Positions 3,137-61,724 of a DNA stretch of 64,000 nt are shown one piece after another. A program made the position numbers and the translations under genes. The first letter of the stretch is position 1. Each line of letters opens with the position of its first letter. The notes below the pieces were generated by a model. That model had not been told where the DNA came from. It did no database searches and saw only the letters and a program-made list of their open reading frames with translations. Location: IMG/VR virus record IMGVR_UViG_3300031951_000010, one strand, 5' to 3'. The DNA is from a virus.

Positions 3137-3156
3137 ATTCATTCATAATACTATAT
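3040..3156 (+). ncRNA. Probable omegaRNA (reRNA) 3' scaffold plus guide
   Basis: Structured 3' end of tnpB through the right-end TTCAC; the flanking ~20 nt would be the guide, by analogy with known TnpB systems; 5' boundary uncertain. Confidence 0.6.
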
Positions 3157-3223
3157 ACGATCATAAAAGAAATACAGTTGCTGATCCAAGGAAGCAAAAT
3201 CATAAAACAAGAAATTAAACTGA

Positions 3224-10313: not shown

Positions 10314-10740
10314 TGATCATAAGTTCTTTGGCATCATTATAGAGAAGATAATCTTGCAGAAATGTATCAATGCCTTTCCACTCGACGTTTTGCCATTTCT
10401 TGGCTGCTTTCACGAATGGAAATCTCACAGCCACGGTGTTGTAGATAAATTCTTTTGATATCGCGGATGGTTTAGCTAGGATAAGAAAAGTTCCATCGCT
10501 TGCTTGTACTAAGATTCTATTTTTCAATTTGGGTTGATTATCGAGATACATAATTGTGATCATCATGAAGAATGGTATTAGGACCATTGTGAAGTACAAT
10601 ATTGCTTTGATGTTTTGTGGATTTGTGTTACAGGCTGCGATCAGGCTTCCTATTAGTGTTGAAAATAAGATAATGATCGGGGCTAGTGTTCTGATTTTAT
10701 CGACTAGTAGCAGATATCCCACGAACATTGCGAATTTCAT
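10273..10740 (-). CDS. Membrane protein
   Basis: Several hydrophobic segments; likely start MKFAMF. Confidence 0.6.
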   Translation of the reverse strand: MKFAMFVGYLLLVDKIRTLAPIIILFSTLIGSLIAACNTNPQNIKAILYFTMVLIPFFMMITIMYLDNQPKLKNRILVQASDGTFLILAKPSAISKEFIYNTVAVRFPFVKAAKKWQNVEWKGIDTFLQDYLLYNDAKELMINGQKHPINTMYHK

Positions 10741-18619: not shown

Positions 18620-18997
18620 TGTTGTTCTCTGATTTATTTTCTTTTGAAAATATGTTCAAAAAATATTAGGTTAATGTAATGGGATTTTCGAGGAAGTATT
18701 TTAGGTAAATTTTCGAGGAAGTGTTCTTGAAGCTCAAATGATTAAAGTTTTTCGAGCAAGTGTTCTGAGATGCTTTTTAAGATCGCGGATAATTGTAGAT
18801 GCAACAGATGCAGTTTTGTCTTCGTATAAAAATTAGCTCTTGAGTACAAAGAACACATGATCGTGGATCATGTCCGCATTTTATGTTGTTGTTTTACTCG
18901 ACCAGTGATAAACTTTGTTGATCTTGTCTTTAATTTATATATGATTATATGACAAGAGAAATAGGGGATTTTTATTTATTAGAGAGCGTATAAAATT

Positions 18998-19772: not shown

Positions 19773-21467
19773 ATGTCCAATATTAAAGAAATTAAAATCA
19801 GTGATGGAGTTTTTGCTATAGTAGATGAGCAAGATTACGAACGTGTTATCAGCGTTGGTAATTGGCATATGCTTAAGGGTAGAAAATTTGTGTATCACCG
19901 ATTTAAGAAAAATGGCACGCGGTCACGAACTTCGCTTGGAGCTTTTATCTTGGGTTGCGCAGAAGTAAAGCATATTAATGGTGATGCGTTGGACTGCCGA
20001 AGATCGAATCTGATCCCAAAATTAGACAATAAGTCAGAATTTGTTCGCGAAGATGGTATTATTGGACATGTTTTAGATTCTTATGGAAGCCAAATTGCTG
20101 TAATTGATTCTGCAGATATTCCTCGCGCTCGACTTGTAAGGTGGTGGAAGGATGATAGCCGAGGGGTCTTGGGCAAGCTATCGAATGGCAAGCAAATTAA
20201 TCTTCAGAGATGGATTCTAGAGCTTGAATCCAGTGACTCACGCGCTGTTTTTTTTAAGGACGGTGATTTTACGAATTGTCGCAGATCAAATATGCATATT
20301 GTAAAGAATCCCACAGCTTTACGTTCTTACGAAAGAAAATTTAATGATTTTTCAATCCAGGGTTCAACTGTTTACATTAAATCGTATTGGAAATCTTATC
20401 CATTTGAAGTTCAAGTAGACGTTTCTGATTTAGATATGATAAAATCATACGGAAGATGGTCTATTATAGGCAGTGCTGAGCCGTATTTGTATGCTGTTGG
20501 CTCTAATTCAAGTGGCAAACAGATTCGTATGCATCGATTAATTATGAATGCACAAAAAACAGAAATTGTTGATCATATTGATGGAAATACATTAAACAAT
20601 CAGCGTGCTAATTTAAGAGTTACGGATAACCGCGGTAATGCCTTAAATCGCAACGTTTCTTCAAAAGGTGTTTCTGGCGATTCTAATGTTTACTTTCTGA
20701 GTCATTTAAAATCAAGACAGTGGTTGGTGAATCTTCGAGAAAAAGGTAGAAGTCTACACTGGTCTAGGCACGAAGACTTAGACACCGCACGCGAAACAGC
20801 ACAGCTGGCAAGAGCCATGTATTATCCGACAAGTAAAGAAGGCACTGCGATCACTGTAAATCTTGGGGGTTATCTAGAGTCTAGTTTTGTTAATGGCCCA
20901 GGAAATCGATGTGTAGTATGGTTTGCTGGCTGCCGCCGTGGATGCGTGGGTTGTTTTAATCCAGAACTTTGGTCTTTCCAGCCTCAGAATTTAGTTTCTC
21001 CAGAATCTCTTGCCAGTCGCATTATCAATAGTCAAGTTCATGGGTTGACTATCTCAGGCGGTGATCCGATGGATTCTCCGCTGGCAACTTTCCGATTTTT
21101 GAGAGCATTGCATGATTCGAACGGGGAATTAGGGGATCGCTTACCAGGCGGAATTATTCTTTTCACTGGCATGGTAATTGAGGAGTTAAATTATGTTCAA
21201 CGCGAATGCTTGAATTACATTGATCTTCTTATCGATGGCCGATTCGAGCAAGACAAGAGAATCGATCACATCCTTGCTGGCAGCTCAAATCAGCGCTTCC
21301 ATTTTCTTGACAAACCTGGCCGCGGAAAAGACAGAATCAATCCCGACGAAGTAAAGATCGACCATGAAGTCGAAGTGCACGCTAGCTCCGATCATTTAGA
21401 GATCACGGGCTTCCCATTTGTCAAGCACCAATGGTTAAAACAACACGGTTTAAAAGTAATTAAATAA
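19773..21467 (+). CDS. nrdG: Fusion of HNH-endonuclease repeats with an NrdG-like radical-SAM activase
   Basis: Three HNH-like units (last intact: RMHRLIM..VDHIDGNTLNNQRANLR), then S.VNGPG.RCVVWFAGCRRGCVGCFNPELW, GLTISGGDP, DLLIDGRF, GSSNQR. Confidence 0.85.
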   Translation: MSNIKEIKISDGVFAIVDEQDYERVISVGNWHMLKGRKFVYHRFKKNGTRSRTSLGAFILGCAEVKHINGDALDCRRSNLIPKLDNKSEFVREDGIIGHVLDSYGSQIAVIDSADIPRARLVRWWKDDSRGVLGKLSNGKQINLQRWILELESSDSRAVFFKDGDFTNCRRSNMHIVKNPTALRSYERKFNDFSIQGSTVYIKSYWKSYPFEVQVDVSDLDMIKSYGRWSIIGSAEPYLYAVGSNSSGKQIRMHRLIMNAQKTEIVDHIDGNTLNNQRANLRVTDNRGNALNRNVSSKGVSGDSNVYFLSHLKSRQWLVNLREKGRSLHWSRHEDLDTARETAQLARAMYYPTSKEGTAITVNLGGYLESSFVNGPGNRCVVWFAGCRRGCVGCFNPELWSFQPQNLVSPESLASRIINSQVHGLTISGGDPMDSPLATFRFLRALHDSNGELGDRLPGGIILFTGMVIEELNYVQRECLNYIDLLIDGRFEQDKRIDHILAGSSNQRFHFLDKPGRGKDRINPDEVKIDHEVEVHASSDHLEITGFPFVKHQWLKQHGLKVIK

Positions 21468-23943: not shown

Positions 23944-24006
23944 GGCTGCCTGAGAAATGGGGGAAAAATCCCCCATTTCTCTTTCTCGATATTGATATAT
24001 AAAACG

Positions 24007-24480
24007 ATGAATATCCTTTTTCGAGCTGTTAACTTGAATCAAAACTCCTTTGGCGATCACACACCGATCACAAGTGCTTTGATCCGACTTTCTGAACAAG
24101 ATGTGCTTTTTATTAAAAAGGCCCTTGACAAATTGACTGAATTAAATGATTCTTGTGTTTTTGACCATCAAATGGTTGAAGCAGTTTTCTCTCTTGGTAA
24201 TCACGCATATTGGTTTAGAGAAATATGTAATTTTGATTACGAATCCCCAAACCCTCTCAATAAGCATTGTTGCATGGTTTCTGATCGAAGAACACAAGAT
24301 ATTCTTGCAGGAGCAAATCTTTATGAATCCATTGTAAACACTTTGGGGTGTGATGTGGCAATTGTTCCTGATGAAAATCGATTTTGCTTCCGCGCAATAG
24401 AAAAGCATACATACCACGTCTTCGAGACTCGGTCAATGACCTTAAAAGAACTTGAGGATTATGTTGCCCAAATTTCTTGA
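24007..24480 (+). CDS. Hypothetical protein
   Basis: Fronted by the promoter motif. Confidence 0.65.
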   Translation: MNILFRAVNLNQNSFGDHTPITSALIRLSEQDVLFIKKALDKLTELNDSCVFDHQMVEAVFSLGNHAYWFREICNFDYESPNPLNKHCCMVSDRRTQDILAGANLYESIVNTLGCDVAIVPDENRFCFRAIEKHTYHVFETRSMTLKELEDYVAQIS

Positions 24481-24490
24481 TCAGAATTGA

Positions 24491-24580
24491 AACTTTTTTG
24501 ATATTCTGATCGTATTATAATTGACGGTACGTGTGGTATTGTTATTTCATTTGTAGGGGGCGCAAGCCCCCTTTTCCTTT
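24491..24580 (+). ncRNA. sRNA cassette 1 (promoter + 32 nt + GCAA terminator)
   Basis: 33-nt conserved head, variable body, GGGGGCGCAAGCCCCC + T-run. Confidence 0.6.
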
Positions 24581-24630
24581 TAAAAAATCCCCTATTTTTT
24601 GATTTTTGTTTGCCTATATAATTCTCATAG

Positions 24631-25194
24631 GTGAATGAAATAATGAACAGAATCGATTTATTTGAATCTCTTGCTATCCAGCATCGCTCGCGCCTGATTA
24701 ATCAGGCGATGGTTTTGTGCCAGGATCACGATATGGCCGAAGACTTGGTGCAGATGACTTTGATTAAGGCTCAGAGACATTTCGATACGTATGACACAGA
24801 AAAAAGTTCTTTTATTAATTGGACTTTAAGAATTCTGCAGCGGACGTTTATTGATGAATTTAGGTCAAAGAAGCGCCGAAACGAAGTTTCAATCGAGGCA
24901 TTCTCAGCTTATGTTCAGGTAAGTGATGATGTTGAATTTGATTGCGAAGATATCAATGCTGACACCGAGGCTAAGATTATTCAGCTTGAAACTATGGCTG
25001 CTGTCAACGAGATGATTGATCGCCTTCCTGTCCAGTATGCTGAGGCACTCCGATTGTGCTTTATCGAAGGGGAAAGTTATGAGTCTATCGCAGAAAAGCA
25101 CAACACGACTATCGGCACGGTGCGTTCGCGCATCCACCGAGCAAGAAAGATGCTTGCAGAACAAAATGCAGAGCATCAAGTTGTCAACCTCTAA
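24631..25194 (+). CDS. ECF-type sigma factor
   Basis: AEDLVQMTLIKA..F..WTLRI..; LP..Y.EAL.L..IEG.SYESIAE....IGTVRSRIHRARK.L. Confidence 0.9.
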   Translation: MNEIMNRIDLFESLAIQHRSRLINQAMVLCQDHDMAEDLVQMTLIKAQRHFDTYDTEKSSFINWTLRILQRTFIDEFRSKKRRNEVSIEAFSAYVQVSDDVEFDCEDINADTEAKIIQLETMAAVNEMIDRLPVQYAEALRLCFIEGESYESIAEKHNTTIGTVRSRIHRARKMLAEQNAEHQVVNL

Positions 25195-25282
25195 AACATA
25201 GTGGAAAAATTTTCCACTATGTTTTAACACTCCGAATCGTGGGCATTCTTGTGAATGGCTAGCAGGTGGAGATTACATATAT

Positions 25283-26101
25283 GTGGAAAAACTTCACATC
25301 ATGTGTAATCTCTTCGAGCGACAACTACAAATCATAGATGGATTAATGCTTGGTGATGGTACGTTGGAGCGGAGAAAACCAACTCACAATGCTTCACTAA
25401 AGGTTCATCGATGCTTGCGAGATATTAGTTACCGAAATTGGTTAGCCAAAGAGCTTTCATCTCTTTTAACTCCAAAATCTTGTTATGAAAATGAAATTTT
25501 TGACAAGCGTACAAATAGAAAGTATTACCATGCTTCGTTTCGGTCCAAATGTTGTCCGTGCTTGACACCGATCTATGATCGCTGGTATCCAAATGGCATC
25601 AAATCTATTCCTAGTGATTTGAAGCTGAATCCGTTAACACTTGCGGTTTGGTTTGCAGACGATGGTTCTTTGTACAATCCCACTAATTATGCCCTGGACA
25701 TGAAATTTGCGACTCATGGGTTTACAGCTGCAGATGTTGAGAGGCTGAAAGATATTCTTCAGGATTATACAAGACGGGAATTTCGTGTGTATTATGAAAA
25801 GGGGCAACCGACCATTAGGGGTTTTTCTGATGCTTCAAGAGCGGTTTTGAGGATAATTGATGATGTGTTTCCCTCATTAGACAGAAAATCGGAAATCTGG
25901 CGGGCGAATAATTATCGGTTGTTTCATGGCAAGCCGATAAAGCCTGTATGTCCGCGGTGTACAATTGGCAAGGTGTATTCCTATGGGAGAACACGAAAGG
26001 GTGTGCAGAAGTTCAAGTGTGTGAGTTGCATGCACGCCTTTCAATCACAATACGAGCGCAGCATGCACAATGTCTATTATCCGACTCTTTCACGTCCATA
26101 A
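25283..26101 (+). CDS. LAGLIDADG homing endonuclease with C-terminal Zn ribbon
   Basis: IIDGLMLGDG and LAVWFADDG motifs; CPRC...FKCVSC. Confidence 0.85.
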   Translation: MEKLHIMCNLFERQLQIIDGLMLGDGTLERRKPTHNASLKVHRCLRDISYRNWLAKELSSLLTPKSCYENEIFDKRTNRKYYHASFRSKCCPCLTPIYDRWYPNGIKSIPSDLKLNPLTLAVWFADDGSLYNPTNYALDMKFATHGFTAADVERLKDILQDYTRREFRVYYEKGQPTIRGFSDASRAVLRIIDDVFPSLDRKSEIWRANNYRLFHGKPIKPVCPRCTIGKVYSYGRTRKGVQKFKCVSCMHAFQSQYERSMHNVYYPTLSRP

Positions 26102-26270
26102 CCAGAGAAATATCACAATGTGAAATAAAAATAAACGCGATTCCTAAGTAGGAATCGCAATACTGTGCACGCACACCTTTCTTTCAATCAGAATTTGAAA
26201 GGCTCACGGGAACAGATAATTCACCGATCACGACCGCTGATGGATTGCAAATCAAATCGTAGAAGATATT

Positions 26271-27284
26271 ATGGACGACATTAAAAACAGACAACACTAT
26301 AAGATTCTGATCGACGGCAAGTCTCCTAATGGCTCAGGTTATGAATGGTCTCTACCTAGTGAAGATCAACCAGGAGAATGGCATGAGTTCGATGGTGAGC
26401 TGATCGCCAATGTTTCGGGATTTCAGATTATTTCTGATATTTATCACGGTAGTTTTGAGAAGCATCTTCAAATTTTTCCTGTTGAAGTTGATTGGGATGC
26501 GGGTTATGAACCTGGGATAAGTGACACATGTGTTGTGAGGCGCTTAAGATTATTGCCGTCGCCAGAGGTTATTATCGTGGGCAATGTGAAAATTTATACC
26601 AAGGATGGAAAGTTACACCGTGATGGTGACCAGCCTGCGGTAATTTTATCTAAACGACATCAGCGTTGGTACAAAAATGGCCTTAAACATCGCGATGGAG
26701 ATCAACCTGCTGAAATTTTGCCTGACGGAACTAAGAAATATTGGCAGAATGATGAGCTTCATCGTGACGGAGATAAACCAGCAGTCATCAAGGAAGATGG
26801 TACTCAAATATGGTATAAAAACAATCAGCGCCATCGCGATGGTGATCAACCTGCCGTAATTCATTCTGACGGATTAACAATGTGGCTCAAGCATGGCGAA
26901 ATTCATCGCGATGGTGACAAGCCAGCGGTGATTGATCCTTGTGGCGTACAAATGTGGTACAAAAACGACCGCAAACATCGTGACGGCGATCAGCCCGCAA
27001 TGATTGAAGCCGACGGAACTCTAAGGTATTATCAACATGATGCCTTGCACAGAGATGGTGATCAGCCTGCAGTAATTTATCCTGACGGTGGACAAAGTTG
27101 GTACCAAAATGACACTCTTCACCGCGGTGGGGACAAACCAGCAATGATTGACAGCGATGGTGTGCAATATTGGTATCAATACGGCAAACCCAAGCGCGAA
27201 GGGGGCAAGCCCACTGTAGTATACCCCGATGGCTCTATACGTAATTATCGATTTGGGGACAAGTCAACTCCGAACTTATTTTAA
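26271..27284 (+). CDS. HRDGDQPA-repeat protein
   Basis: N-terminal domain shared with 12552..13763, plus about 9 tandem 23-aa repeats W..N...HRDGD.PAVI..DG. Confidence 0.85.
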   Translation: MDDIKNRQHYKILIDGKSPNGSGYEWSLPSEDQPGEWHEFDGELIANVSGFQIISDIYHGSFEKHLQIFPVEVDWDAGYEPGISDTCVVRRLRLLPSPEVIIVGNVKIYTKDGKLHRDGDQPAVILSKRHQRWYKNGLKHRDGDQPAEILPDGTKKYWQNDELHRDGDKPAVIKEDGTQIWYKNNQRHRDGDQPAVIHSDGLTMWLKHGEIHRDGDKPAVIDPCGVQMWYKNDRKHRDGDQPAMIEADGTLRYYQHDALHRDGDQPAVIYPDGGQSWYQNDTLHRGGDKPAMIDSDGVQYWYQYGKPKREGGKPTVVYPDGSIRNYRFGDKSTPNLF

Positions 27285-27377
27285 AAAATCCCCTAAATTT
27301 TTCGAGAAAATTGCCTATAATAAATTGGTAAAAGGACCAAACAGCGAAATGCTGTTTTCAAATAAAACAAAAACACT

Positions 27378-27821
27378 ATGAAGAACATTCTTTTGACTCT
27401 CGTTGCCCTCGTGGCTTTCGGCACTATGAGCTTTGCTCAATCGACCACCACGACTCGTCAGTCGGACGGCTTTACTGCTCAAAGTCAAAGCGTTGAACTG
27501 ACCTCGACTAGCCTGAATCTTGTCTATCTTCGAGACGGTTATGACAATTATGCTGCGTTCACTCTTCCCATGTATACTTTTTCTGGGACTGGTGGCCGTC
27601 TGAAGCTGAATACTTTCGGGGCTTTTGACCCGAATAACATTGAGCGACGTGCTTATCTCAGCACTGGTCTTTCTTTCGATGTCGTTGATCAAGACGGCTG
27701 GAAGCTGACCGTTTTTGGTGGGCCGAAGGGCTTTAATGTTGCGGACAACTTCCGTTTCCAAGACGGTAATCGTGGATGGGTGTACGGCGTCGGCATTTCA
27801 CTCCCCCTCTCTTCCAACTAA
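27378..27821 (+). CDS. Secreted/outer-membrane beta-strand protein
   Basis: Signal peptide MKNILLTLVALVAFGTMSFAQ; amphipathic strands; followed by a terminator at 27848-27886. Confidence 0.6.
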   Translation: MKNILLTLVALVAFGTMSFAQSTTTTRQSDGFTAQSQSVELTSTSLNLVYLRDGYDNYAAFTLPMYTFSGTGGRLKLNTFGAFDPNNIERRAYLSTGLSFDVVDQDGWKLTVFGGPKGFNVADNFRFQDGNRGWVYGVGISLPLSSN

Positions 27822-27884
27822 GACCAACAACACACTCAAGTAGACTAATCATCCCCGAATCATTTCTGATTAGGGGATGATTTT

Positions 27885-28181
27885 TTGTATAAAATTCATG
27901 TGAGCGAGATTGAACATTCATGTCTTCTGACAAAAGCTATTGATCGTCTGAAAGACGCGGCTAAATTTACCCCAGAATTCGCCCGAGGAGGAATGATCGC
28001 AAAATACATAGCGGAAGTGTCTTGTATTTTCGAGCCAAACAAGGTTGTTCGCGGAAATGTTTTATACGCTGTTGAAAAAGCATCTAAGAATTTCGAGCAT
28101 GATGCGCGTTGCATCGATATAATTTTATCAGCTATACAGCATATAGAAATGAATTTATGGATTTCAAATAATAGTCGATAA
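27885..28181 (+). CDS. Hypothetical protein
   Basis: 98 aa; start uncertain. Confidence 0.45.
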   Translation: MYKIHVSEIEHSCLLTKAIDRLKDAAKFTPEFARGGMIAKYIAEVSCIFEPNKVVRGNVLYAVEKASKNFEHDARCIDIILSAIQHIEMNLWISNNSR

Positions 28182-28194
28182 TTTCTGATCGTGC

Positions 28195-28285
28195 AACTTT
28201 TTTGATATTCTGATCGTATTATAATTGAGATAACGAACTGTATCTTATTTTCAAGTCGAGGGGGCGCAAGCCCCCTTTTTCCTTT
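28195..28285 (+). ncRNA. sRNA cassette 2 (32-nt body)
   Basis: Head and terminator hairpin identical to cassette 1. Confidence 0.6.
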
Positions 28286-28326
28286 AAAAATCCCCTATTT
28301 TCATATTCTGATCGGATATATGCGAT

Positions 28327-28623
28327 ATGCCTAAGAGCCAAATCACCCCGATCCCAAGCATGGATGTAAAGATTTCATATGAAAGAGTCCCGAATACGAA
28401 GTATGTGAATTTTTTTGCCACTTGCGCACTGGGACGAAAACAGATCGCAACCATGAAAAAGGAACGATACTCTTTCTATCTCGTGGGTGGCTATAAAAGA
28501 AGTGTGACATATTATCTTGATATGGAAGATCAGATTGAGTTTAATAGCATTGCAGAACGTCTTAAATGCGAAAGACAACCCTGGCGAATTGCCCAACATA
28601 TTGAAGAAGGAGGCTGGGAATGA
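28327..28623 (+). CDS. Hypothetical protein
   Basis: Fronted by the promoter motif. Confidence 0.65.
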   Translation: MPKSQITPIPSMDVKISYERVPNTKYVNFFATCALGRKQIATMKKERYSFYLVGGYKRSVTYYLDMEDQIEFNSIAERLKCERQPWRIAQHIEEGGWE

Positions 28624-28895
28624 AAAAAGTTTACAGACTCCCAGTTTACGACATTGTTGTTGAAATAGACAAAAAAGGCGGGACTATTGTATCCTCCCTG
28701 AAGGAGGATAATCCTTTTCATAAAAACCATACAATTGATGAAGATGAGATCATGCACGATGAATTCGATGCTTGTATGGATGGGATTGAAGCTTTAATTC
28801 TTTCTTGTGCCTGTAATGGCATTAATATTGCTTTACCTGAGTTTGTCAAATCCGTACAAGATGCTGTTTCTGCTGCAGAAAATCATTTTCTTTAA
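28620..28895 (+). CDS. Hypothetical protein
   Basis: 91 aa, DGIEALILSCAC.GINI phage-type motif. Confidence 0.65.
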   Translation: MKKVYRLPVYDIVVEIDKKGGTIVSSLKEDNPFHKNHTIDEDEIMHDEFDACMDGIEALILSCACNGINIALPEFVKSVQDAVSAAENHFL

Positions 28896-28904
28896 TTTTC
28901 TGGA

Positions 28905-29010
28905 AACTTTTTTGATATTCTGATCGTATTATAATTGGAACACAAAAGAGAAAAAGATAAATTTCGACGAGATGAGAGCAAGCTGGGGGCGCAAGCCCCC
29001 ATTGCTATTT
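28905..29010 (+). ncRNA. sRNA cassette 3 (47-nt body)
   Basis: Identical head and hairpin. Confidence 0.55.
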
Positions 29011-29052
29011 AAAAATCCCTCTTTTTCATTGTCCTGATCGGATATATGAACT

Positions 29053-29457
29053 ATGATTAATAAAATCAAAGAAATTTTTGAATGGGCAAAGTCAGATGTG
29101 CCCAACGTGGGCGATATGCCGTACACTGAAGGATATGTCGATGGACTGCGCATGGCGAAAGAGGCTGTTTTGGACATCCTTGGTGATGTGGAAGAACCGC
29201 TGAATGAAGAAGAACCAAAGCTCTCTTTAAAAATCGAGGGATTCGAGACAAGAGAACAGGCTGAAGCTTTTGTTTCATGGTATACAGGACAAGGCGAACA
29301 AGATGCAATTTTTTGGTTTGATGCCCGAGTAAATGAAGGCAATCTAGATGTTAACTTTATGCCCGTAGATAGTAAGCAAACATTTCCTTTGAAATTTGAA
29401 AACAATGAAGCAAAAGTTGTTCTTGAAATGTGCAAACCAGATTTTGACGAAGAATAA
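29053..29457 (+). CDS. Hypothetical protein
   Basis: C-terminal F.T.EQAEAFVSWYTGQGEQ motif. Confidence 0.7.
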   Translation: MINKIKEIFEWAKSDVPNVGDMPYTEGYVDGLRMAKEAVLDILGDVEEPLNEEEPKLSLKIEGFETREQAEAFVSWYTGQGEQDAIFWFDARVNEGNLDVNFMPVDSKQTFPLKFENNEAKVVLEMCKPDFDEE

Positions 29458-29875
29458 TAAAGCAGACCCGAAAGTGACTCATTGTGAGCTTTGCGAAGTT
29501 GGCAAAAAGTGGCTTGAAAGAAAAGGATATGTAGTTGCATTTTCTGAGTTAAGAAACATCCTAATGCATCAACACCCAGATGTGATTGGTTGGAGCTGCA
29601 GGGGTGTCTCTTGTTTGATCGAAGTTAAAATTTCGAGGTCGGATTATAATCGCGATGCTAAAAAGCCTCATGTCATTTCTCCAACCGTGGGTAAATCGCG
29701 ATACTATTTAGTTCCGAAAGGATTGATTAAACCTTGCGAAATACGCGATGGATGGGGATTATTGGAGTATGACGGAAAGCGCGTGCATAAAACAGTGGAT
29801 TCACCCGAACATTTAAAACGATCTGTAAATGACGAGTGCGCAATGTTAGTTTACGCATTGAGGAATCGGAGATGA
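29396..29875 (+). CDS. PD-(D/E)XK nuclease-like (MmcB-like) protein
   Basis: PDVIGW...LIEVKISRSD...RYYLVP..GWGLL; true start probably later. Confidence 0.65.
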   Translation: MKTMKQKLFLKCANQILTKNNKADPKVTHCELCEVGKKWLERKGYVVAFSELRNILMHQHPDVIGWSCRGVSCLIEVKISRSDYNRDAKKPHVISPTVGKSRYYLVPKGLIKPCEIRDGWGLLEYDGKRVHKTVDSPEHLKRSVNDECAMLVYALRNRR

Positions 29876-33559: not shown

Positions 33560-33838
33560 ATGGACAAAGAAGCCATTAAACTAGCCATCTTGCCCCGTGG
33601 ATCAAAACTAATCGAGGGTGAAGAAATTAAGTATTATCTTGTTCTCGGGATCGTGGCCACGAACAAGGACATCAACTGGGAAAAAGACTTTGTGACTATG
33701 GAAAGCGCAATCGGCTCGCCGATCACAGATAAAATTGAGAAAATGACCAAGATGAAACTTGATGAAGATTGCGGAGACGCGAATTCTGTGTTAATGAAAC
33801 TTCATAACACCAACAGAAACGAACTTGAAGAACTCTAA
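33560..33838 (+). CDS. Hypothetical protein
   Basis: Fronted by the promoter motif. Confidence 0.6.
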   Translation: MDKEAIKLAILPRGSKLIEGEEIKYYLVLGIVATNKDINWEKDFVTMESAIGSPITDKIEKMTKMKLDEDCGDANSVLMKLHNTNRNELEEL

Positions 33839-34131
33839 TGGAACAAGACGTTTCTCAATATATTTTCATCTCACAAGAAAGCATTGACAAAGCTAAGAAA
33901 CTTATGAAAAAAGCTCCAGAATCATTAGAAGATTGGGCAGAAGAAAATTCGCGGAAAGAACGCCGATTAGAAACTCGACGCAGATACTATCGTGAAAACA
34001 AAATTCAAATCAATGTTCGACGTAAAGAACGAAAAGAAGAAATTCGAGCTGAACAGATTAGAACAGAAAAAGAACTATCGGACAAGCTTCAAATGACACT
34101 AAATTTTGATTCTGATCGTAGTAATAATTAA
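33838..34131 (+). CDS. Hypothetical basic protein
   Basis: 97 aa. Confidence 0.55.
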   Translation: MEQDVSQYIFISQESIDKAKKLMKKAPESLEDWAEENSRKERRLETRRRYYRENKIQINVRRKERKEEIRAEQIRTEKELSDKLQMTLNFDSDRSNN

Positions 34132-34132
34132 G

Positions 34133-35365
34133 ATGAGAAGTTTTTTGTCTCAGGATTTATATAAAATTACGATGAGCCAAGCAGTTTGGCGACTGTTTCC
34201 TAATGCCTGGGTGAAATATCACTATAAGCTTCGAACAAAAAACGTCAATCTTGCCCCGATTAAAGATCGAATTGATCGCAAAATTCATCAACTTCAAGGT
34301 ATTGGGCCGACGGCGCTAGAAATCAACTTTCTTCGATCATTGGGATATTTTGATCCGTCATTTTTGGCATCATTGGCACATTTCAAACTGAACCCAGATG
34401 CGTATGTGAAAACAAGCGTGGATCAAGGGCATTTTGATCTCGTGATCGAAGGACCTTGGTATGATACGATCTTCTTCGAAGTTATGCTGTTGCAAATCAT
34501 CTCGGAAACATATTTCGAAGATCACGCCCGCGAACACCCAGAGGTTTTCGAGGAAGGCAGACAGCGATTGAATGAAAAAATCGAGCACTTGCTTCACATC
34601 TACGATCAGTATACAGATCATTACGAAAGTCTAAGGGACCTTGAGGGCGGGGGAGAACTCAATCCTTTCTGCCTGATGGAATTCGGCACTCGTCGAGCTT
34701 TTTCAGAATCGTGGCAAGGAGAAGTTGTTGAAACACTTGCGCAAAAACTTCCGCGTGAAATGTTCCTCGGTACATCAAACGTGTATTGGGCACAACAACT
34801 TGGGCTTAAGCCACAAGGCACGATGGCGCACGAATATATCTGTGCTCATGGAGCGCTTTATCCCTTGCATGAGGCGCAAAAGCAAGCTTTCTACAATTGG
34901 AACAAGGTGTTCCAAGGCAAGCTCGGAACCGCGCTTTCAGATACATTCACTTTTGATCAATTCCTAAGAGACTTTGATTCGGGCTTGGCCAACTTGTTTA
35001 CAGGAGCTAGGCACGACTCTGGTGATCCGTTCGAGTGGGGCCACAAACTCATTGAACACTATCGAACACTGGGAATCAACACTCATACCAAAGTGGCTGT
35101 GTGGAGCGATAATCTAGATATCGAGCTGGCAGAAAAGCTTTGGAAAACTTTTGCCCCGAAAATTAAAACATCATTCGGGATCGGGACCAATTTGACTAAT
35201 GACATGGGGTTAAAGCCTTTGTCACAAGTCATTAAGCTTACTCATGTGAACAACATGCCAGTGATTAAGATTAGTGATGAACCCGAGAAAGTGATGTGCG
35301 AAGATGAAACATACAAGGCCTGGGCTTTGCGACTATTTACAGAAATTTTACCAAATCAATCATGA
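34133..35365 (+). CDS. pncB: Nicotinate phosphoribosyltransferase
   Basis: DLYKITM, MEFGTRR, GTSNV, GTMAHE, RHDSGDP, WSDNL, SFGIGTNLTND, IKISD..EK. Confidence 0.93.
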   Translation: MRSFLSQDLYKITMSQAVWRLFPNAWVKYHYKLRTKNVNLAPIKDRIDRKIHQLQGIGPTALEINFLRSLGYFDPSFLASLAHFKLNPDAYVKTSVDQGHFDLVIEGPWYDTIFFEVMLLQIISETYFEDHAREHPEVFEEGRQRLNEKIEHLLHIYDQYTDHYESLRDLEGGGELNPFCLMEFGTRRAFSESWQGEVVETLAQKLPREMFLGTSNVYWAQQLGLKPQGTMAHEYICAHGALYPLHEAQKQAFYNWNKVFQGKLGTALSDTFTFDQFLRDFDSGLANLFTGARHDSGDPFEWGHKLIEHYRTLGINTHTKVAVWSDNLDIELAEKLWKTFAPKIKTSFGIGTNLTNDMGLKPLSQVIKLTHVNNMPVIKISDEPEKVMCEDETYKAWALRLFTEILPNQS

Positions 35366-35784: not shown

Positions 35785-35851
35785 AAATCCCCTATTCTTG
35801 TGGCCCAATTTGAATGTATAAAGGGATGAATACATTTATGGGAGGCGTGTT

Positions 35852-36097
35852 TTGAACTACGCTTGGGAAGTGACCGTTGACGATGTTTTTTATGCTATCA
35901 ATGCAAATGACATAAAAATCTCGTGGGAAAACGCAAACAAAATTCATGACATGCTTGATCATGATGAAGTCGTAGCTGCTGCGCTTTATGGCGAAGACAT
36001 GGACGATCAGGCCGCATATGCAAGCGATGAAATTCGCAATCAAGTCTTTGACGAAAGTGGAAACTTGCGCACAGAGTTTGCCTTCGCAGGGGGATAA
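35852..36097 (+). CDS. Hypothetical protein
   Basis: GGAGG SD before a TTG start. Confidence 0.6.
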   Translation: MNYAWEVTVDDVFYAINANDIKISWENANKIHDMLDHDEVVAAALYGEDMDDQAAYASDEIRNQVFDESGNLRTEFAFAGG

Positions 36098-36137
36098 AAA
36101 TCCCCTGTTTTCTTTCTTCTGATCGGATATATAAATC

Positions 36138-36575
36138 ATGACGCCAAGCGAACAACAATACAAAGAAGCTTCTTACAGTGTCCTTTTCCAGAAAGGATGT
36201 GTGATCAAAGACGAACGAGACATCATCAAGTATTATTCAAATACACTGAACGCAGATTATACGGAAACCAAACGAGCCTTAAAAGACCTCCAAGCCAATG
36301 GTATTAATATTGGGGAAAGCTCTTTGCCCTCTGATGGATATGGTTCTGTATTTAATGGAACTGACGCAAATAATATTGAAATTGAGTATATGAGCGCCAC
36401 GATAGTGTCTAATTCAGGTGCTAAGTATTTTTGGGCCGTGCAAGTAGGATCATTGTCCAAGGTCATCAAACTCTTGACAAATCCAATGTCTTTAGAGGAC
36501 GCCTTGTTTGTTTTGGCTCAGAGACTTGAACGAGTCAATGACAGCCAAGAACTTGCTTACAACTCGGGACTGTAA
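36138..36575 (+). CDS. Hypothetical protein (paralog of 37235)
   Basis: Shared L..GCVI...DII..Y...ADY...NGI block. Confidence 0.7.
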   Translation: MTPSEQQYKEASYSVLFQKGCVIKDERDIIKYYSNTLNADYTETKRALKDLQANGINIGESSLPSDGYGSVFNGTDANNIEIEYMSATIVSNSGAKYFWAVQVGSLSKVIKLLTNPMSLEDALFVLAQRLERVNDSQELAYNSGL

Positions 36576-36616
36576 AAAATCCCCCATATTCATAATCCCA
36601 ATCGGATATATAAAGC

Positions 36617-37192
36617 ATGGCTAAATACACGTTCACAACTTATCGACGAAAGCAAGGCACATCTGAATTCACGGTAGTAAATCAAGAAACCCTTGATCGT
36701 TATTCTGATTATCGCAATTGTAGTGTGCTTGATGATTTTGTGATTGTTCACAATCATAAAACTGGCACATATCATAATTTTTGCCGAAAAGACTTCTATG
36801 GCGATGTTGATGGGCAAATTATTTTCGGATGCAATCTATTTGGAGTTCCTGTTGTTGAACACAAAGATGATATGCAAATTCATTCTGTGACTTTCGCACA
36901 GGTAGCGACGTCGTGGCGCAATCGAGACGTCTGTGTTCATTTTGACCGCAGCATTCATCCGCAAGATTTTCAAGATGTCCATGCCCTCATCGCCGCTATT
37001 GAAAATGCGCTTAAGAACATTCATGGACAAAGCCAAGCTGCCAACCATGGAAGAATGTTGGCATGCGGAGGAGAAAATGCATATAGAGCCTATAACATGG
37101 GGGAAGTTTATTTTGCAATTTACCTTATACATCAGCGAACTGGCGCAAGAGTTGTCACACTTAATAATCGCGTGGGGATTTTTTACTACTAA
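36617..37192 (+). CDS. Hypothetical protein
   Basis: Fronted by the promoter motif. Confidence 0.7.
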   Translation: MAKYTFTTYRRKQGTSEFTVVNQETLDRYSDYRNCSVLDDFVIVHNHKTGTYHNFCRKDFYGDVDGQIIFGCNLFGVPVVEHKDDMQIHSVTFAQVATSWRNRDVCVHFDRSIHPQDFQDVHALIAAIENALKNIHGQSQAANHGRMLACGGENAYRAYNMGEVYFAIYLIHQRTGARVVTLNNRVGIFYY

Positions 37193-37234
37193 AAAATCCC
37201 CGATTTTCACCACTCCAATCGGATATATAATCAC

Positions 37235-37759
37235 ATGAACTTTGCTCACGAACTTAAAGCCAAGGTGTGTTGCATCCTTTTACAATCGGGATGTGTAATT
37301 CGTAACCCAGATGACATCATACAAACATATAGCCAACGAATTGACGCTGATTTTCGAGCCACGGAAATGGCTTATGAAGATTTCAAACAAAATGGAATTG
37401 ACCTAGAGGCATCGTCAACGATTGAAGATGGAACCGAGGGCGCATTTGATGGCTCATTTAATGAGCCTCTTCAAGTCCCTTATATTAAGTGCACGATTGT
37501 TTCCAACACGGGCATATCTTATCCTTTCGCGGCTCAAACAGGAGGAAAACTTGATAACTCACTATCGGCTATTATGAAACTTCTTTGTTCTAATCATGAT
37601 ATTAATGAGTCTCTTGAAGAACTCAAGACGCGATTAGAAGATGTTAAGAAGCAAACTCAGAAAATCGAGCGTGATGGACCCTACAAAGCCATGTTTGAAA
37701 GAGACTATGAGCTTATGCTCGATAGTCACTTGGCCTATGAGAGTTATTGCTATCTCTAA
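37235..37759 (+). CDS. Hypothetical protein (paralog of 36138)
   Basis: Fronted by the promoter motif. Confidence 0.7.
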   Translation: MNFAHELKAKVCCILLQSGCVIRNPDDIIQTYSQRIDADFRATEMAYEDFKQNGIDLEASSTIEDGTEGAFDGSFNEPLQVPYIKCTIVSNTGISYPFAAQTGGKLDNSLSAIMKLLCSNHDINESLEELKTRLEDVKKQTQKIERDGPYKAMFERDYELMLDSHLAYESYCYL

Positions 37760-42886: not shown

Positions 42887-43004
42887 TTTTTTATGACTTT
42901 CTATCACGATCTTTTTTATGACTTTCTATCACGATCTTTTTTATGACTTTCTATCACGATCTTTTTTATGACTTTCTATCACGATCTTTTTTATGACTTT
43001 CTAT
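42887..43004. repeat. 25-nt tandem repeat, ~4.7 copies
   Basis: TTTTTTATGACTTTCTATCACGATC x4 plus an 18-nt partial copy, between a terminator and the rIIA promoter. Confidence 0.95.
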
Positions 43005-43103
43005 GATCGGGTGCCACGGCGGGCTTATTTTCTAAAAAAATCCCCTTTTTTCATCTGCTCGATATACTATATAAACTACCTTTAATCAGGAATCCACCAG
43101 ATA

Positions 43104-45203
43104 ATGATTACTAACCAAACTAACAAGCCTGTTGAATCTCTTGGGGTTCAATCTGAAGCATTTTTCAACGTCAAGCAAGAAAACCTCGCGTTTATCTTTG
43201 GTATCCTCCGCAATAACCTTTACTCTGATAAGCCCCTGGCTATTCTGCGAGAGTATTCTGCTAATGCCAAGGATGCTCATGCTGAAAATGGTTGCCCTGA
43301 GCGACCGTTTGTCGTCACGATGCCCACGGCCTTGTCTCCGAATCTTAGCATCCGAGACTTTGGCAAGGGTCTGAGCGAAGAACAAGTCTATAATATTTTT
43401 GCATCGTATGGTGCGTCAACCAAGCGCGAAACCAATGACCAGATTGGGGGCTTTGGCATTGGCTCCAAGTCGGCTTTCTGTTATGTTAATGGTTTTACGA
43501 TTGTTAGCATCTTTGAAGGCAAGAAGTCTACTTATCGTGCCTACATTGATGAAACCAATATCGGTAAAATCTCTCGAATGGGCGAGCCTACTGACACCGA
43601 TGAAGAAAGTGGCCTTGAAATCATTGTTGAAATCAAGCAAAATGATATTCACTCTTTTGTTGCGGCTGGAAAGTCTCTCTTTAAGCACTTCAATCCCAAG
43701 CCGATTATTGTTTCTTGCCGCGATTTGAGCGAGTATATTGCTAACTATCGTCAGGGTGAAGTCTTGATCGAAGGCTCTGATTGGAGCATTGTGAAGCGTC
43801 AAAACTATGGTTCTTCCGAGGCTTATTGTGTTATGGGAGATATTCGCTATCCCATTCAGATCAACAAGATCACTTCTGATCGTAAGGGCTGGGTTGATTC
43901 ACTTTATGGTAGCACAATCAACATTGTCACTCCGATTGGGTCTGTGAAGATGAGCGCAAGCCGTGAATCACTTGAGTATGACGAGGTTACAATTGACTTT
44001 CTTAACAAGTCTGTCGAACGAATCTATGCCGAAGCCTGCCAAATGGTGACGAATGAACTCAAGAATTGCAAGACTCTTTGGGAAGCGCGAATTTACCTCA
44101 AGGAAATGGACAAAATTTACGGTAGCCTTAATGTTAAGGCTGAGTGGAATGGCGAACCTATTAAACTACCGCACGTCCATCTTGGGCCGAATGGTTCTGT
44201 TGGCGCGATTGAAGGTATTAGCCTTATTCGACGAGCAGAAAAGACCCGTAACGGGGACCTAAAGTGGTGCCGATGTGCTGATATTGTGCCTTCTAAGAAT
44301 GTCATTATCTTTACGGACAATGGCACGGTGAAGCGAAACACGCTCTTTTCGCGAATTAACAAGTACGTTGCTGACAACAACTTCGGGGGAACCTGCGTGC
44401 TTGCTCAATTCACTACGGCTGAGGCCCAGAAGGAGTTTGAGACTCACGAAGAAATCATCGGCGCGAATATCATTGATGTTGAAACCCTGGCTTATGTGCC
44501 TCCGATTCGTGCGAAGCGCATTAGCACTGGTGCGCGTGATAAGCAAAAGTGTTCGGCTTTCACTTACAATGGCAAGACCTATGCCAGCGTGAAGTCTCAA
44601 GCCTGGGACCCCGTGGAAGTGGACCTTGTTAATGATGGCGGGGTTTATGTTTACATTGACAAATTCTTGCCAGTCGGTTTTAGTGGCTTTGGACACCTGA
44701 AAAAGATCATTGAAGCATTGGGAGAATTAACTAATGAAACGATCATTGTTCACGGGTTCCGCGCAATGAAGAAAACCGAAAACCTTGGAAGCAATTGGGT
44801 TAGCCTTGAGGACAAAATCAAGAGTGTTATGCAAGATTGGGCCGCTGATGAGCAAACTAGCATGATGGTTGCTTCAAACTACGTCCATGATGAAACGGAA
44901 AGAATTTTTGATTATATTCAAGCGCACCGTGACTTACTTGATGATTCAAGTGTCGCCGCTGAGTTTGTAGACTTTATCAGTGAGTTTCCGACTGTGGTTG
45001 ATGAAAATGCTCTGGATAATCTGAAATACCTGTCTAATTATTCTTGTGATTTTTACAATACGTCTGATGTGGATGAGCATCGGAGTAAGTATAATGAACT
45101 CAAGAAAAAGGTCTGGGAAACTTATCCTATGCTGATATGCATTGCCCATAAGCATGAAGATCGGCGAGCTTTAGACTACATTGCTCTGGTGGACAAAAAG
45201 TAG
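43104..45203 (+). CDS. rIIA: rIIA-like protein (GHKL/HSP90-type ATPase domain)
   Basis: LYSDK..AILREYSANAKDAH, IRDFGKGL, YGASTK..N..IGGFGIGSKS. Confidence 0.85.
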   Translation: MITNQTNKPVESLGVQSEAFFNVKQENLAFIFGILRNNLYSDKPLAILREYSANAKDAHAENGCPERPFVVTMPTALSPNLSIRDFGKGLSEEQVYNIFASYGASTKRETNDQIGGFGIGSKSAFCYVNGFTIVSIFEGKKSTYRAYIDETNIGKISRMGEPTDTDEESGLEIIVEIKQNDIHSFVAAGKSLFKHFNPKPIIVSCRDLSEYIANYRQGEVLIEGSDWSIVKRQNYGSSEAYCVMGDIRYPIQINKITSDRKGWVDSLYGSTINIVTPIGSVKMSASRESLEYDEVTIDFLNKSVERIYAEACQMVTNELKNCKTLWEARIYLKEMDKIYGSLNVKAEWNGEPIKLPHVHLGPNGSVGAIEGISLIRRAEKTRNGDLKWCRCADIVPSKNVIIFTDNGTVKRNTLFSRINKYVADNNFGGTCVLAQFTTAEAQKEFETHEEIIGANIIDVETLAYVPPIRAKRISTGARDKQKCSAFTYNGKTYASVKSQAWDPVEVDLVNDGGVYVYIDKFLPVGFSGFGHLKKIIEALGELTNETIIVHGFRAMKKTENLGSNWVSLEDKIKSVMQDWAADEQTSMMVASNYVHDETERIFDYIQAHRDLLDDSSVAAEFVDFISEFPTVVDENALDNLKYLSNYSCDFYNTSDVDEHRSKYNELKKKVWETYPMLICIAHKHEDRRALDYIALVDKK

Positions 45204-45351: not shown

Positions 45352-46605
45352 ATGAAGATCACCGCATGTATTTACCAAACTGGCGATAGCCTCACAATCG
45401 CTTTTGACAATGGAAGTCCGCTGACTATCCATAGTTACGATGGCAATTTTAACAAGGCCGTTGAAGCCTATCGCAATGGGGATGTTGAAGAACTTTATAG
45501 TTTGATGAACATCCTCACATCTATCGAAAAGATGAGCGAATCTATTGATGACATTAAGGTTGTCGGCAATAGCGTTTATTATCGTGATGAAGAAATCCAC
45601 AACGTTATTGTTGATCGGATTTTGGACTTCCGTAATAATGGCTTTGACATTAAGCCGCTTGCGCGAATGTTGTCCAAGCTGATGCTGAACCCCTCTCGCC
45701 GCGCCGTGGAAGAACTCTACAAGTTCCTTGCCCACAAGAACCTTCCCGTCACCGATAATGGTAATTTTCTTGCCTATAAGGGCGTGACTTCGGATTATTG
45801 GAGCATTACGAGTGGTGATGCCAAGCTGATTAAGGGGACGGTTGATGATGGAGGCCGTATCTACAATGGTGTCGGTGAAGAAATCCAAATGCACCGCAAT
45901 AAGGTGGATGACAATAAGGACAATCACTGTTCTTATGGCCTTCATGCTGGTAGCCTTGAATACGCTGATAACTTCCGTAGTTACGGCGGCTACGGCGGAA
46001 AGCTGATGATCGTGGAAATTGACCCCGCTGATGTAGTGTCGATTCCTAGCGATTGTGGTTGCCAAAAGCTCCGAACTTGCCGCTATAAGGTTGTTGGCGA
46101 GTATGACGGACCTCTGACTCAGCCTCTGTACGAATCTAATTTTTCCACCGAAAATGACGATCTTTATGATGAAGATATTTTTGACGAAGATGATTGCAAC
46201 GAAGGTGACTACGACTATACTGAGCCCGAGGATTTTGACAATGAAGATGATTTAGGTGTCGTCACCGACCAGTGTGGGAATGTTCTTAATGATGGCGATG
46301 TTTGTCTGTCTGATGACGGCAAGTTGTACGCCTGGAATGAAAATAACAAGACGTTTGTTGACCTTGACGATTCTGAAAATGAGCTTGATAGCGCGATGTG
46401 GGAGAAGATGACCTATCTCGACCCCGATGCCCGAAATGATAGTGACTTTTTGGTACTGATTGATGGCATGATCTACGAGGACTCTTTCGGCAATAAACTC
46501 AAGTGGAATGAGACGGCTGACTTGTTTGAATATGTCAATACAACGTCGTGGCCCAAGCCTACTTATCTTCAGGCAATTCGCAATAAGATTGTTCGCGTTC
46601 AGTGA
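45352..46605 (+). CDS. rIIB: rIIB-like protein
   Basis: NPSRRAVEELYKFL...FLAYK.V...R..VDDN....CS.GLH.GS..Y...DVVSIP.D...K.R.C.Y.V; directly after rIIA. Confidence 0.85.
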   Translation: MKITACIYQTGDSLTIAFDNGSPLTIHSYDGNFNKAVEAYRNGDVEELYSLMNILTSIEKMSESIDDIKVVGNSVYYRDEEIHNVIVDRILDFRNNGFDIKPLARMLSKLMLNPSRRAVEELYKFLAHKNLPVTDNGNFLAYKGVTSDYWSITSGDAKLIKGTVDDGGRIYNGVGEEIQMHRNKVDDNKDNHCSYGLHAGSLEYADNFRSYGGYGGKLMIVEIDPADVVSIPSDCGCQKLRTCRYKVVGEYDGPLTQPLYESNFSTENDDLYDEDIFDEDDCNEGDYDYTEPEDFDNEDDLGVVTDQCGNVLNDGDVCLSDDGKLYAWNENNKTFVDLDDSENELDSAMWEKMTYLDPDARNDSDFLVLIDGMIYEDSFGNKLKWNETADLFEYVNTTSWPKPTYLQAIRNKIVRVQ

Positions 46606-46767: not shown

Positions 46768-47067
46768 ATGAAAGTCCGAGTTTATCACAACCCCGATGAT
46801 GTTTTTGATTTCACCAGCATTGAAGATATGATCGCTGTTGCAGACGTTGAGTGTGATGATATTGAGCACGCAATGGAATTGACCATGAGTATTGATGACG
46901 ATTGGTGGAAGAACAGCGGTGTGACCAAGTTATTTGAGGATGAAATTTGTCGCAGCACGAATGCTGGCGATGCGATTGTGAACTTGGATACTAATAAGAT
47001 TCATGTTGTTGAGTTGCTTGGTTTTCGCACGATTGAATCTGACGTAATCTTTACGGGGAAGGAATAA
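46768..47067 (+). CDS. Hypothetical protein
   Basis: Fronted by the promoter motif. Confidence 0.65.
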   Translation: MKVRVYHNPDDVFDFTSIEDMIAVADVECDDIEHAMELTMSIDDDWWKNSGVTKLFEDEICRSTNAGDAIVNLDTNKIHVVELLGFRTIESDVIFTGKE

Positions 47068-55580: not shown

Positions 55581-55928
55581 ATGAGTGAAGATTTTTTGAA
55601 CGGTTTTGCTATCGGTGCTGTTGCGATTATAGTTATTTGGGTTTGCTCGGCAATTAAGGCGAGTATTCCAAAACCTACAAACATGGGGTGGCTCGATGGA
55701 TCGGGTGATTGGATTGAGGTGGTTCGTATCGGTCACTCAGGAGTGACTGTGCGACATTGTGGGTATAATTCACGTAATTCACACTGGACATTTAGGCGCT
55801 GTGCAGAAGATGCTGGCTGGCCTCTTTCCAAGATGCTTGATTACCTGGGCCTTCCCGATGAAAAGACACTCAAGGAAGCTGACATGACCATGGGTGAATG
55901 GCTTTCACAAAAAAATAAAAATTCTTGA
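55581..55928 (+). CDS. Membrane-anchored hypothetical protein (paralog of 56430)
   Basis: CA.DAGW...M.D.LGLPDE..LKE..MT.GEWL. Confidence 0.7.
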   Translation: MSEDFLNGFAIGAVAIIVIWVCSAIKASIPKPTNMGWLDGSGDWIEVVRIGHSGVTVRHCGYNSRNSHWTFRRCAEDAGWPLSKMLDYLGLPDEKTLKEADMTMGEWLSQKNKNS

Positions 55929-55956
55929 AACTTTTCAAAGGTGATCGCCGTATAAC
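55927..55956 (+). promoter_or_regulatory. Promoter variant of an attenuated tRNA operon
   Basis: GAAACTTTT...GGTGATCGCCGTATAA; CGYCGTATAA also precedes the leaders at 1709(-) and 61725. Confidence 0.7.
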
Positions 55957-61597: not shown

Positions 61598-61724
61598 ACT
61601 CCAAAAACATTCTCATTGAGGGAGAATTTAATCCCTCAATGAGAAAAAACAAAAAACTGCTAACAAAAAGCAGGTGATCGTCGTATAATAAGAGAAGAAA
61701 CTGAAAAGCACAAAGAGCTATATT

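Follow-up and report, generated by a model that had tools for sequence, protein, structure and literature searches.

The 64,000-nucleotide (nt) stretch of DNA that was analysed here (IMG/VR virus record IMGVR_UViG_3300031951_000010; hereafter the window) comes from a large phage with rIIA (43104-45203) and rIIB (45352-46605) genes, and also holds seven tRNA genes and a LAGLIDADG endonuclease gene. Between its genes lie three short units, here called cassettes 1, 2 and 3, which are built from a common 33-mer, a body and a common hairpin. The 33-mer is exactly identical at 24491, 28195 and 28905, always on the plus strand, and the hairpin, the 16-mer GGGGGCGCAAGCCCCC, is likewise identical at 24556, 28260 and 28985, the number of copies expected by chance being 0 in both cases; no additional copy of the 33-mer was found in the window when up to three mismatches were allowed. 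The intervening bodies of 32, 32 and 47 nt are unrelated, a multiple alignment matching just one TTTC and scattered bases. Each unit occupies the space from a stop codon, about 10 nt upstream, to the promoter of the next gene, which follows the hairpin after a gap of about 10 nt and has a variant form at cassette 1, where the gene next downstream encodes a sigma factor of the extracytoplasmic function (ECF) type. The 33-mers, the hairpins, the unrelated bodies and the promoters that follow had all been described in an earlier note made from the letters of the window, and the description was borne out. The immediate flanks and the tails of the three cassettes are diverged in a multiple alignment, which counts against a very recent duplication. 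We regard this anatomy as non-random and suggest, tentatively and with belief and doubt nearly in balance, that the cassettes are paralogous, self-contained small transcription units (Table 1).

Judged from its sequence, the 33-mer is very probably a promoter of the ECF-sigma type. The -35 elements of cassettes 1, 2 and 3 read TGAAAC, TGCAAC and GGAAAC, their first bases preceding the 33-mer, and TTTTTT comes next in each; with CGTAT downstream, the motif matches the ECF/sigW-type consensus of Bacillus subtilis, tGAAACnTTTt plus CGTA, and its 17-nt spacer falls within the optimal ECF range of 14-17 bp (PMC5758882). The combination AAC-N17-CGTAT occurs at eight sites in the window, compared with 1.07 expected, and the looser pair of (A/C)AAC and CGTA(T/A) gives seven matches at a spacing of 17 nt and between 0 and 3 at spacings of 15, 16, 18 or 19 nt. 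The five sites outside the cassettes are three tRNA-operon promoters, a site at 18803 and a minus-strand site at 3179-3155. A G stands at CGT+12 in five of the eight aligned sites, with purines after it; in the cassettes this G is the final base of the 33-mer, and transcription is predicted to start there, so that conservation stops exactly where the RNA would begin.

The protein encoded just downstream of cassette 1 scores 87 bits against TIGR02937 (sigma70-ECF; cut-off 42.9) and contains no sigma regions other than 2 and 4; the downstream neighbour of its gene is a homing endonuclease gene, and no anti-sigma gene is evident beside it. We infer that this phage ECF sigma probably reads the cassette promoters. 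Cassette 1 resembles the PsigW promoter of B. subtilis (TGAAAC-N16-CGTA; PMC5758882) in its TGAAAC with a T-tract, its CGTA and its position just upstream of an ECF sigma gene. It differs from PsigW in its spacing of 17 rather than 16 nt, in the strong terminator and second promoter that intervene before the sigma gene, and in that no anti-sigma gene follows the latter.

The earlier note had pointed to a TATAAT within the 33-mer, and the perfect hexamer is indeed present, at 24516-24521 and at the equivalent positions of the other two copies. With the A/T-rich context upstream of it, this could indicate that each cassette is a host sigma-70 early promoter followed by a terminator, its likeness to ECF promoters being coincidental. 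We consider this very improbable, because no usable -35 element lies 16-18 nt upstream (TTGATA is just 12 nt away, and CTTTTT stands at 17 nt), because a sigma-70-type scan did not list the three sites, and because the TATAA-like hexamer lies 3 nt nearer to the CG in the other five promoters, whereas AAC-N17-CGTAT keeps the same register in all eight. The functional signal is thus probably the ECF-type TGAAAC...CGTAT, in the same register as in the tRNA-operon promoters, rather than the TATAAT.

At the other end of the cassettes, the three hairpins are at the top of the list of terminator-like structures for 19-38 kb. Those of cassettes 1 and 2 qualify as canonical intrinsic terminators, their 6-8-bp stem being closed by a GCAA loop and followed by UUUU(U)CC. 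Folded from the predicted start, the RNAs of these two cassettes consist of a 5' hairpin, 10-12 unpaired nt with UUAUUU(U)CA, the C(GCAA)G hairpin and U4-5, while the RNA of cassette 3 has no 5' hairpin and its common hairpin is extended by AGCAA/UUGCU. An identical terminator had been claimed for all three units; this holds for the sequence of the 16-mer but not for its function, since cassette 3 has no proper U-tract. A 5' mini-hairpin followed by an unpaired stretch had also been described for bodies 1 and 2, and both do fold in this way, but the hairpin is not distinguishable from chance. Hairpins of at least six pairs anchored at the 5' end arose in 34% of shuffled bodies, and this shuffling test led us to reject the common 5' hairpin as a sign of structure; folded alone, body 1 had a marginal z-score of -2.25 and body 2 one of -0.26. 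No Rfam covariance model matched the cassettes, the three matches at E 1.7-8.5 being far below the gathering scores. Mini-open reading frames (mini-ORFs) in the bodies were rejected, as they have no consistent start or frame, and so was an AUG in body 3, which opens 21 codons through the hairpin and has no Shine-Dalgarno sequence.

Taken together, the promoter and terminator signals indicate that short RNAs are probably made from the cassettes. What survives of the modular small RNA (sRNA) chassis proposed in the earlier note is a self-contained promoter-body-terminator unit with a predicted RNA of about 50-70 nt; the swappable guide and the anti-CRISPR (clustered regularly interspaced short palindromic repeats) role proposed with it found no support. 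In the latter role, the cassette would be an RNA anti-CRISPR, a solitary repeat or a decoy resembling a CRISPR RNA (crRNA), with a 32-nt "spacer" followed by a repeat-like hairpin. A 32-nt body with a GC hairpin at its 3' side does recall the shape of a type I crRNA. Against this, the cassettes lack a second repeat as well as a conserved 5' handle, body 3 measures 47 nt, and the hairpin is of the generic C(GCAA)G tetraloop kind. No CRISPR array carrying it was seen, a negative that is not complete because the host was not identified. We searched one genome per species from 185,579 species for exact copies of the hairpin spaced 52-80 nt apart, which yielded seven loci, and the two of the seven that were inspected proved to be tandem satellite repeats without variable spacers. 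We give the CRISPR-like reading almost no credence. The satellites themselves, which carry the GGGGGCGCAAGCCCCC hairpin in tandem repeats of 70-85 nt, belong to metagenome-assembled genomes of Planctomycetota and Lentisphaeria (L046:2400-2790; L049:1080-1420) and are unrelated to the phage.

Whether the cassettes are stand-alone units depends on what follows them. The standard promoter of this phage consists of AAAAATCCCC, about 15 nt and TGATCGGATATAT(A/G), with the ATG at a constant distance behind it and no Shine-Dalgarno sequence; its AAAAATCCC-type motif was matched 39 times in the window, where 0.56 matches would be expected (for example at 36096-36140). Its -10 element, TCGGATAT(A), resembles the sigma-28/sigma-D-type box GCCGATAT/AA, but its -35 part, AAAAATCCCC, does not fit the sigma-28/sigma-D-type consensus. 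A second sigma gene of the phage, encoding 289 aa, may serve this promoter family. The genes after cassettes 2 and 3 each have a standard promoter of their own, with the ATG at the distance fixed in the family and without a Shine-Dalgarno sequence. Read-through from the 33-mer would leave their AUG internal and without a ribosome-binding site, and would thus serve these genes poorly; given the separate promoter and the missing Shine-Dalgarno sequence downstream, the cassettes are best read as separate small-RNA genes. The order of stop codon, promoter, body and terminator implies that the hairpin also ends the transcripts of the upstream gene.

The main rival to this reading is conditional read-through, which applies above all to cassette 3 and, as sigma autoregulation, to cassette 1. 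The 33-mer would then be a second, ECF-dependent promoter of the downstream genes, and at cassette 1 the classical promoter by which a sigma gene regulates itself; the hairpin would throttle transcription or be antiterminated, and the short RNA would be a by-product. A promoter of their own is usually found directly ahead of ECF sigma genes (PMC5758882), and at one promoter of phage phiKZ a terminator in the 5' untranslated region (UTR) aborts more than 90% of the transcripts, the rest entering the genes (PMC10914365). The weak U-tract of cassette 3 would fit such a scheme, as would the other same-class promoters in the window, which precede leader-peptide attenuators and then tRNAs. However, a promoter of its own separates the ATG of every downstream gene from the hairpin, and for the genes after cassettes 2 and 3 the distance to the ATG is of the leaderless type. 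Moreover, the Shine-Dalgarno sequence of the sigma gene is predicted to be sequestered in a read-through RNA, and in our folds the 32-nt leader offers no structure that could compete with the terminator. On these grounds, we think conditional termination unlikely.

The region between cassette 1 and the sigma gene has a feature of its own, a 14-bp hairpin at 24604-24640 that pairs the Shine-Dalgarno sequence of the sigma gene with the segment 24604-24617, upstream of the start of the proximal promoter, with modest support (-10.6 kcal/mol, z -2.1). If it forms, just the promoter-proximal transcripts of the sigma gene would be translatable. A similar discrimination between transcripts occurs at the T4 genes e and soc.

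The cassettes could also matter as DNA rather than RNA. T4-type phages have composite terminator-promoter cassettes, termed PeSL and PmSL (Arbiol 2010, PMC2839356; Comeau 2014, PMC4122927), and in a PeSL a stem-loop lies upstream of one sigma-70-like promoter, a Shine-Dalgarno sequence and an ATG (PMC4122927). The present units are comparable in being short repeated regulatory elements between small accessory genes of a large rIIA/rIIB phage, with a stem-loop and then the next promoter. They might accordingly be PeSL-like portable units or boundary insulators, kept identical by recombination and marking the joints of exchangeable gene modules, with an RNA that has no role. In T4-type phages, the stem-loop terminator of a PeSL directly precedes a promoter where modules meet (PMC4122927), the same order as that of hairpin and standard promoter here. 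The putative modules between the cassettes, 24.6-28.2 kb and 28.3-28.9 kb, would be a sigma/homing-endonuclease module and a two-ORF module without assigned function, and near-identical pairs of promoter units occur elsewhere in the window, such as a 62-nt pair at 98% identity (family D2). In contrast to a PeSL, however, each cassette has an extra promoter and a transcribed body upstream of the stem-loop, and the promoter after the hairpin is not sigma-70-like and lacks a Shine-Dalgarno sequence. A role at the DNA level would also leave unexplained why a promoter fires into a terminator, and why identity breaks off precisely at the predicted +1, to return precisely at the hairpin; a conversion tract would not leave out the 32 nt at the centre of a unit. 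We therefore regard this explanation as improbable.

Returning to the cassettes as small-RNA genes, a candidate target exists for the RNA of cassette 1. Its unpaired UUAUUUCAUU is perfectly complementary to AAUGAAAUAA, which lies between the Shine-Dalgarno sequence and the AUG of the sigma gene, 110 nt downstream. The 10 Watson-Crick pairs extend to 16 contiguous pairs when G-U pairs are admitted (24631-24646, covering GUG...AUGA), and composition-preserving shuffles gave p = 0.0013 for the Watson-Crick run and p = 0.001 with G-U pairs; the eight other combinations of RNA and start region were non-significant. On the plus strand of the window TGAAATAA has two occurrences only. Further 9-nt matches of the cassette 1 seed lie in AAAUGAAAU start contexts at 47063 and 49699 and may partly reflect start-codon composition. 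The absence of an evident anti-sigma gene beside the sigma gene makes a sigma-made RNA that blocks sigma translation an attractive idea, although we judge such a feedback loop rather unlikely to exist. That the cassette RNAs act in trans is possible, if on balance doubtful. For bodies 2 and 3 no candidate target was found in the window, none of whose genes is similar to the bodies over a longer stretch, and no start region stood out among the 116 that were cofolded. Body 2 shares 14 nt with 10659-10672, in the sense orientation of a membrane-protein gene, but the match goes no further and was treated as chance.

Several observations weigh against the cassettes being regulatory RNA genes of this kind. 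Nine pairs were tested, so that the p value for the cassette 1-sigma pairing becomes about 0.01 after correction. Duplex scans of both strands of the window, with whole bodies or unpaired seeds, gave no energetically outstanding partner, and the sigma start region is absent from the top-ranked sites in the energy-based scans of cassette 1. When only the bodies are folded, those of cassettes 2 and 3 do no better than chance. The tail of cassette 3, AUUGCUAUUU, is poor as a U-tract, which makes the 3' end and the efficiency of termination uncertain; its RNA would be about 65-75 nt long or would be partly read through. The perfect TATAAT makes use by the host sigma-70 possible. The identity of all 33 of the 33 promoter bases exceeds the needs of a promoter, as the spacers of the tRNA-operon promoters, which belong to the same class, are different. 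One option is that every position is constrained, which may be by an additional factor site or by GATC; the spacer of the 33-mer includes ATATTCTGATCG, which is present in standard promoters too. The other option is that bodies may have been exchanged between fixed ends. Finally, no relative carrying the cassettes was found among phage records, in IMG/VR or in the JGI metagenomes.

The searches behind this last result covered several probes. A megablast search of 50,697 phage records with 24000-29500 returned no match, and the 33-mer, used exactly and as degenerate patterns, had 0 matches in IMG/VR and the JGI metagenomes. In IMG/VR, standard-promoter patterns gave 0 or single chance matches, and the sigma protein as a probe found no relative. 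The standard promoter led to one true relative in the JGI metagenomes (L003, 2.8 kb), which is 95% identical to 36094-37472 and spans 35.8-37.5 kb, outside the cassettes. An rIIA probe identified only a phage with 38% identity (L001), whose promoter units are quite different, and the nearest rIIA in phage records is less than 30% identical. In Logan/ENA, a cluster on 4 contigs (P0001) is 99% identical to the ECF sigma.

Table 1 Cassettes, promoters and sigma genes in the window.
Feature	Position	Strand	Details
Cassette 1 promoter	24488..24523	+	-35 TGAAAC 24488-24493 and T-tract; -10 CGTAT 24511-24515; predicted +1 G 24523
Cassette 2 promoter	28192..28227	+	TGCAAC; CGTAT 28215-28219; predicted +1 G 28227
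Cassette 3 promoter	28902..28937	+	GGAAAC; CGTAT 28925-28929; predicted +1 G 28937
Cassette 1 predicted RNA, ~53 nt	24523..24575	+	5' hairpin, single-stranded UUAUUUCAUUUGUA, hairpin 24556-24571, UUUU (fold, terminator scan)
Cassette 2 predicted RNA, ~54 nt	28227..28280	+	Hairpin 28260-28275, then UUUUU (fold, terminator scan)
Cassette 3 predicted RNA	28937..29010	+	Purine-rich unstructured 5' part; hairpin 28977-29006 including common 16-mer 28985-29000; tail AUUGCUAUUU
Proximal variant promoter of sigma gene, with short Shine-Dalgarno-bearing leader	24583..24642	+	Family D4
AAUGAAAUAA in 5' UTR/start of ECF sigma gene	24634..24643	+	Complementary to single-stranded part of cassette 1 RNA
ECF sigma factor gene, 183 aa	24643..25194	+	Pfam Sigma70_r2 and r4_2; TIGR02937 87 bits
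Standard promoter of gene after cassette 2	28286..28329	+	ATG 28327, no Shine-Dalgarno; family D5
Standard promoter of gene after cassette 3	29011..29055	+	ATG 29053, no Shine-Dalgarno
TGAAAC-N17-CGTAT promoter of tRNA-Leu operon	55926..55953	+	Same class as cassettes
tRNA-operon promoter of same class	1755-1781	minus	Motif search
tRNA-operon promoter of same class	61662-61686		Motif search
Same-class site, divergent-promoter region	18803-18827		Motif search
Same-class site beside insertion sequence (IS) element	3155-3180	minus	TGCAAC-N17-CGTAT
Second sigma gene, 289 aa	21484-22353		Weak FliA/SigF-type matches

Further members or relatives of the promoter class have surroundings of their own. 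The promoter at 18803 lies 160 nt before the first plus-strand gene; the approximately 80 nt behind it fold well (-22.4 kcal/mol, z -2.9) and are followed by a U-rich stretch, and the segment 18803-18915 may be a further short RNA or a leader. A degenerate relative of the 33-mer at 34094-34135 (GACAC-N17-CGTAG) shares TTTTGAT..TCTGATCGTA with it, lies within the end of the gene 33838-34131 and stands 4 nt before the ATG (34133) of a nicotinamide phosphoribosyltransferase-like gene. The minus-strand TGCAAC-N17-CGTAT promoter at 3179-3155 has an IS200/605-type element just downstream (~1830-3139; transposase phrog_506, 1926-3089). The hairpin behind this promoter was rejected as a fourth cassette, as it is the end of the element, CCCCACCC...GGGTGGGG. 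A copy of the element with about 70% identity sits at another place in L003 (L003:56-1395), where it replaces 35816-36093 of the window and also lies a few bases behind a promoter -10 and (T/A)TGAAT.

Three other features of the window were recorded. Just upstream of the rIIA promoter, 42887-43011 holds 4-5 tandem copies of the 25-nt unit TTTTTTATGACTTTCTATCACGATC, an array that could be iteron-like or serve for binding. The 564-aa ORF at 19773-21467 contains nrdG (anaerobic ribonucleotide reductase activase, radical SAM/Fer4_12, residues 373-510) behind an HNH domain (residues 233-353). The 337-aa ORF at 26271-27284, which has no Pfam or PHROG match, contains seven repeats of 72 nt (24 aa) that start with a CATCGNGATGGNGAT-type stretch.

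If the cassettes are separate small-RNA genes, an ECF-type promoter, probably read by the phage ECF sigma, would fire the cassettes and the tRNA operons. The RNA would run through an unconstrained body of 32-47 nt into the extra-stable C(GCAA)G hairpin, which, with U4-5, would terminate cassettes 1 and 2 and also the transcripts of the upstream gene, a layout like that of sRNAs embedded in a 3' UTR. The most likely role of such RNAs would be that of sigma-dependent riboregulators, the variable part being the working part, and the cassette 1 RNA would pair with the Shine-Dalgarno-to-AUG region of the sigma mRNA as a negative feedback that replaces an anti-sigma factor. In its fullest form, which we consider distinctly unlikely, this would be a large phage with a family of riboregulators on a fixed chassis of ECF promoter and terminator, in which cassette 1 would act as an RNA anti-sigma, the other seeds would be directed against phage or host mRNAs and new bodies could slot in.

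On the best reading, the cassettes are three paralogous small-RNA units with an ECF-type promoter, akin to two known kinds of RNA, the ECF-dependent sRNAs and the short promoter-proximal RNAs of phages. Among the former, the enterobacterial sRNAs MicL, RybB and MicA depend on the ECF factor sigma-E, whose activity they in turn influence by feedback; the MicL promoter lies within or behind the upstream gene, and the terminator is common to both. The cassettes share with these sRNAs an ECF-type promoter, a short RNA (here a predicted one) and an intrinsic terminator, as well as the MicL-like use of the terminator of the upstream gene. They differ in having no sequence or Rfam relationship to them, in being phage-encoded and much shorter (~53 nt), in forming three paralogues with identical promoter and terminator and unrelated bodies, and in that the proposed feedback would act directly on the sigma mRNA. 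As for phage RNAs, the jumbo phage phiKZ has terminators right behind promoters that give rise to plentiful short transcripts, one of them about 71 nt long and terminated in more than 90% of cases (Putzeys et al. 2024, PMC10914365). In such 5'UTR RNAs of phiKZ and other Pseudomonas phages, a promoter with a terminator that follows almost at once yields an abundant RNA of less than 250 nt upstream of a gene (PMC10914365), a layout that the cassettes resemble. In phiKZ, however, the downstream gene needs read-through, whereas here a separate promoter stands between terminator and gene; the promoter classes differ, and the text consulted does not describe a triplicated identical chassis (PMC10914365).

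Whether or not the RNAs are made, the two promoter classes, paired with two phage sigma genes, constitute a testable map of the transcription programme of this phage. If the proposed arrangement is true, its compact layout (a 36-bp promoter, a free 32-nt slot and a 20-nt terminator) would be a natural minimal programmable sRNA scaffold. If the RNAs are real, the phage ECF sigma would have a non-coding RNA regulon made up of tRNA operons and mini-RNAs, of which we found no earlier case in the literature, and it would possibly be subject to RNA-based negative feedback, with no evident anti-sigma partner beside its gene.

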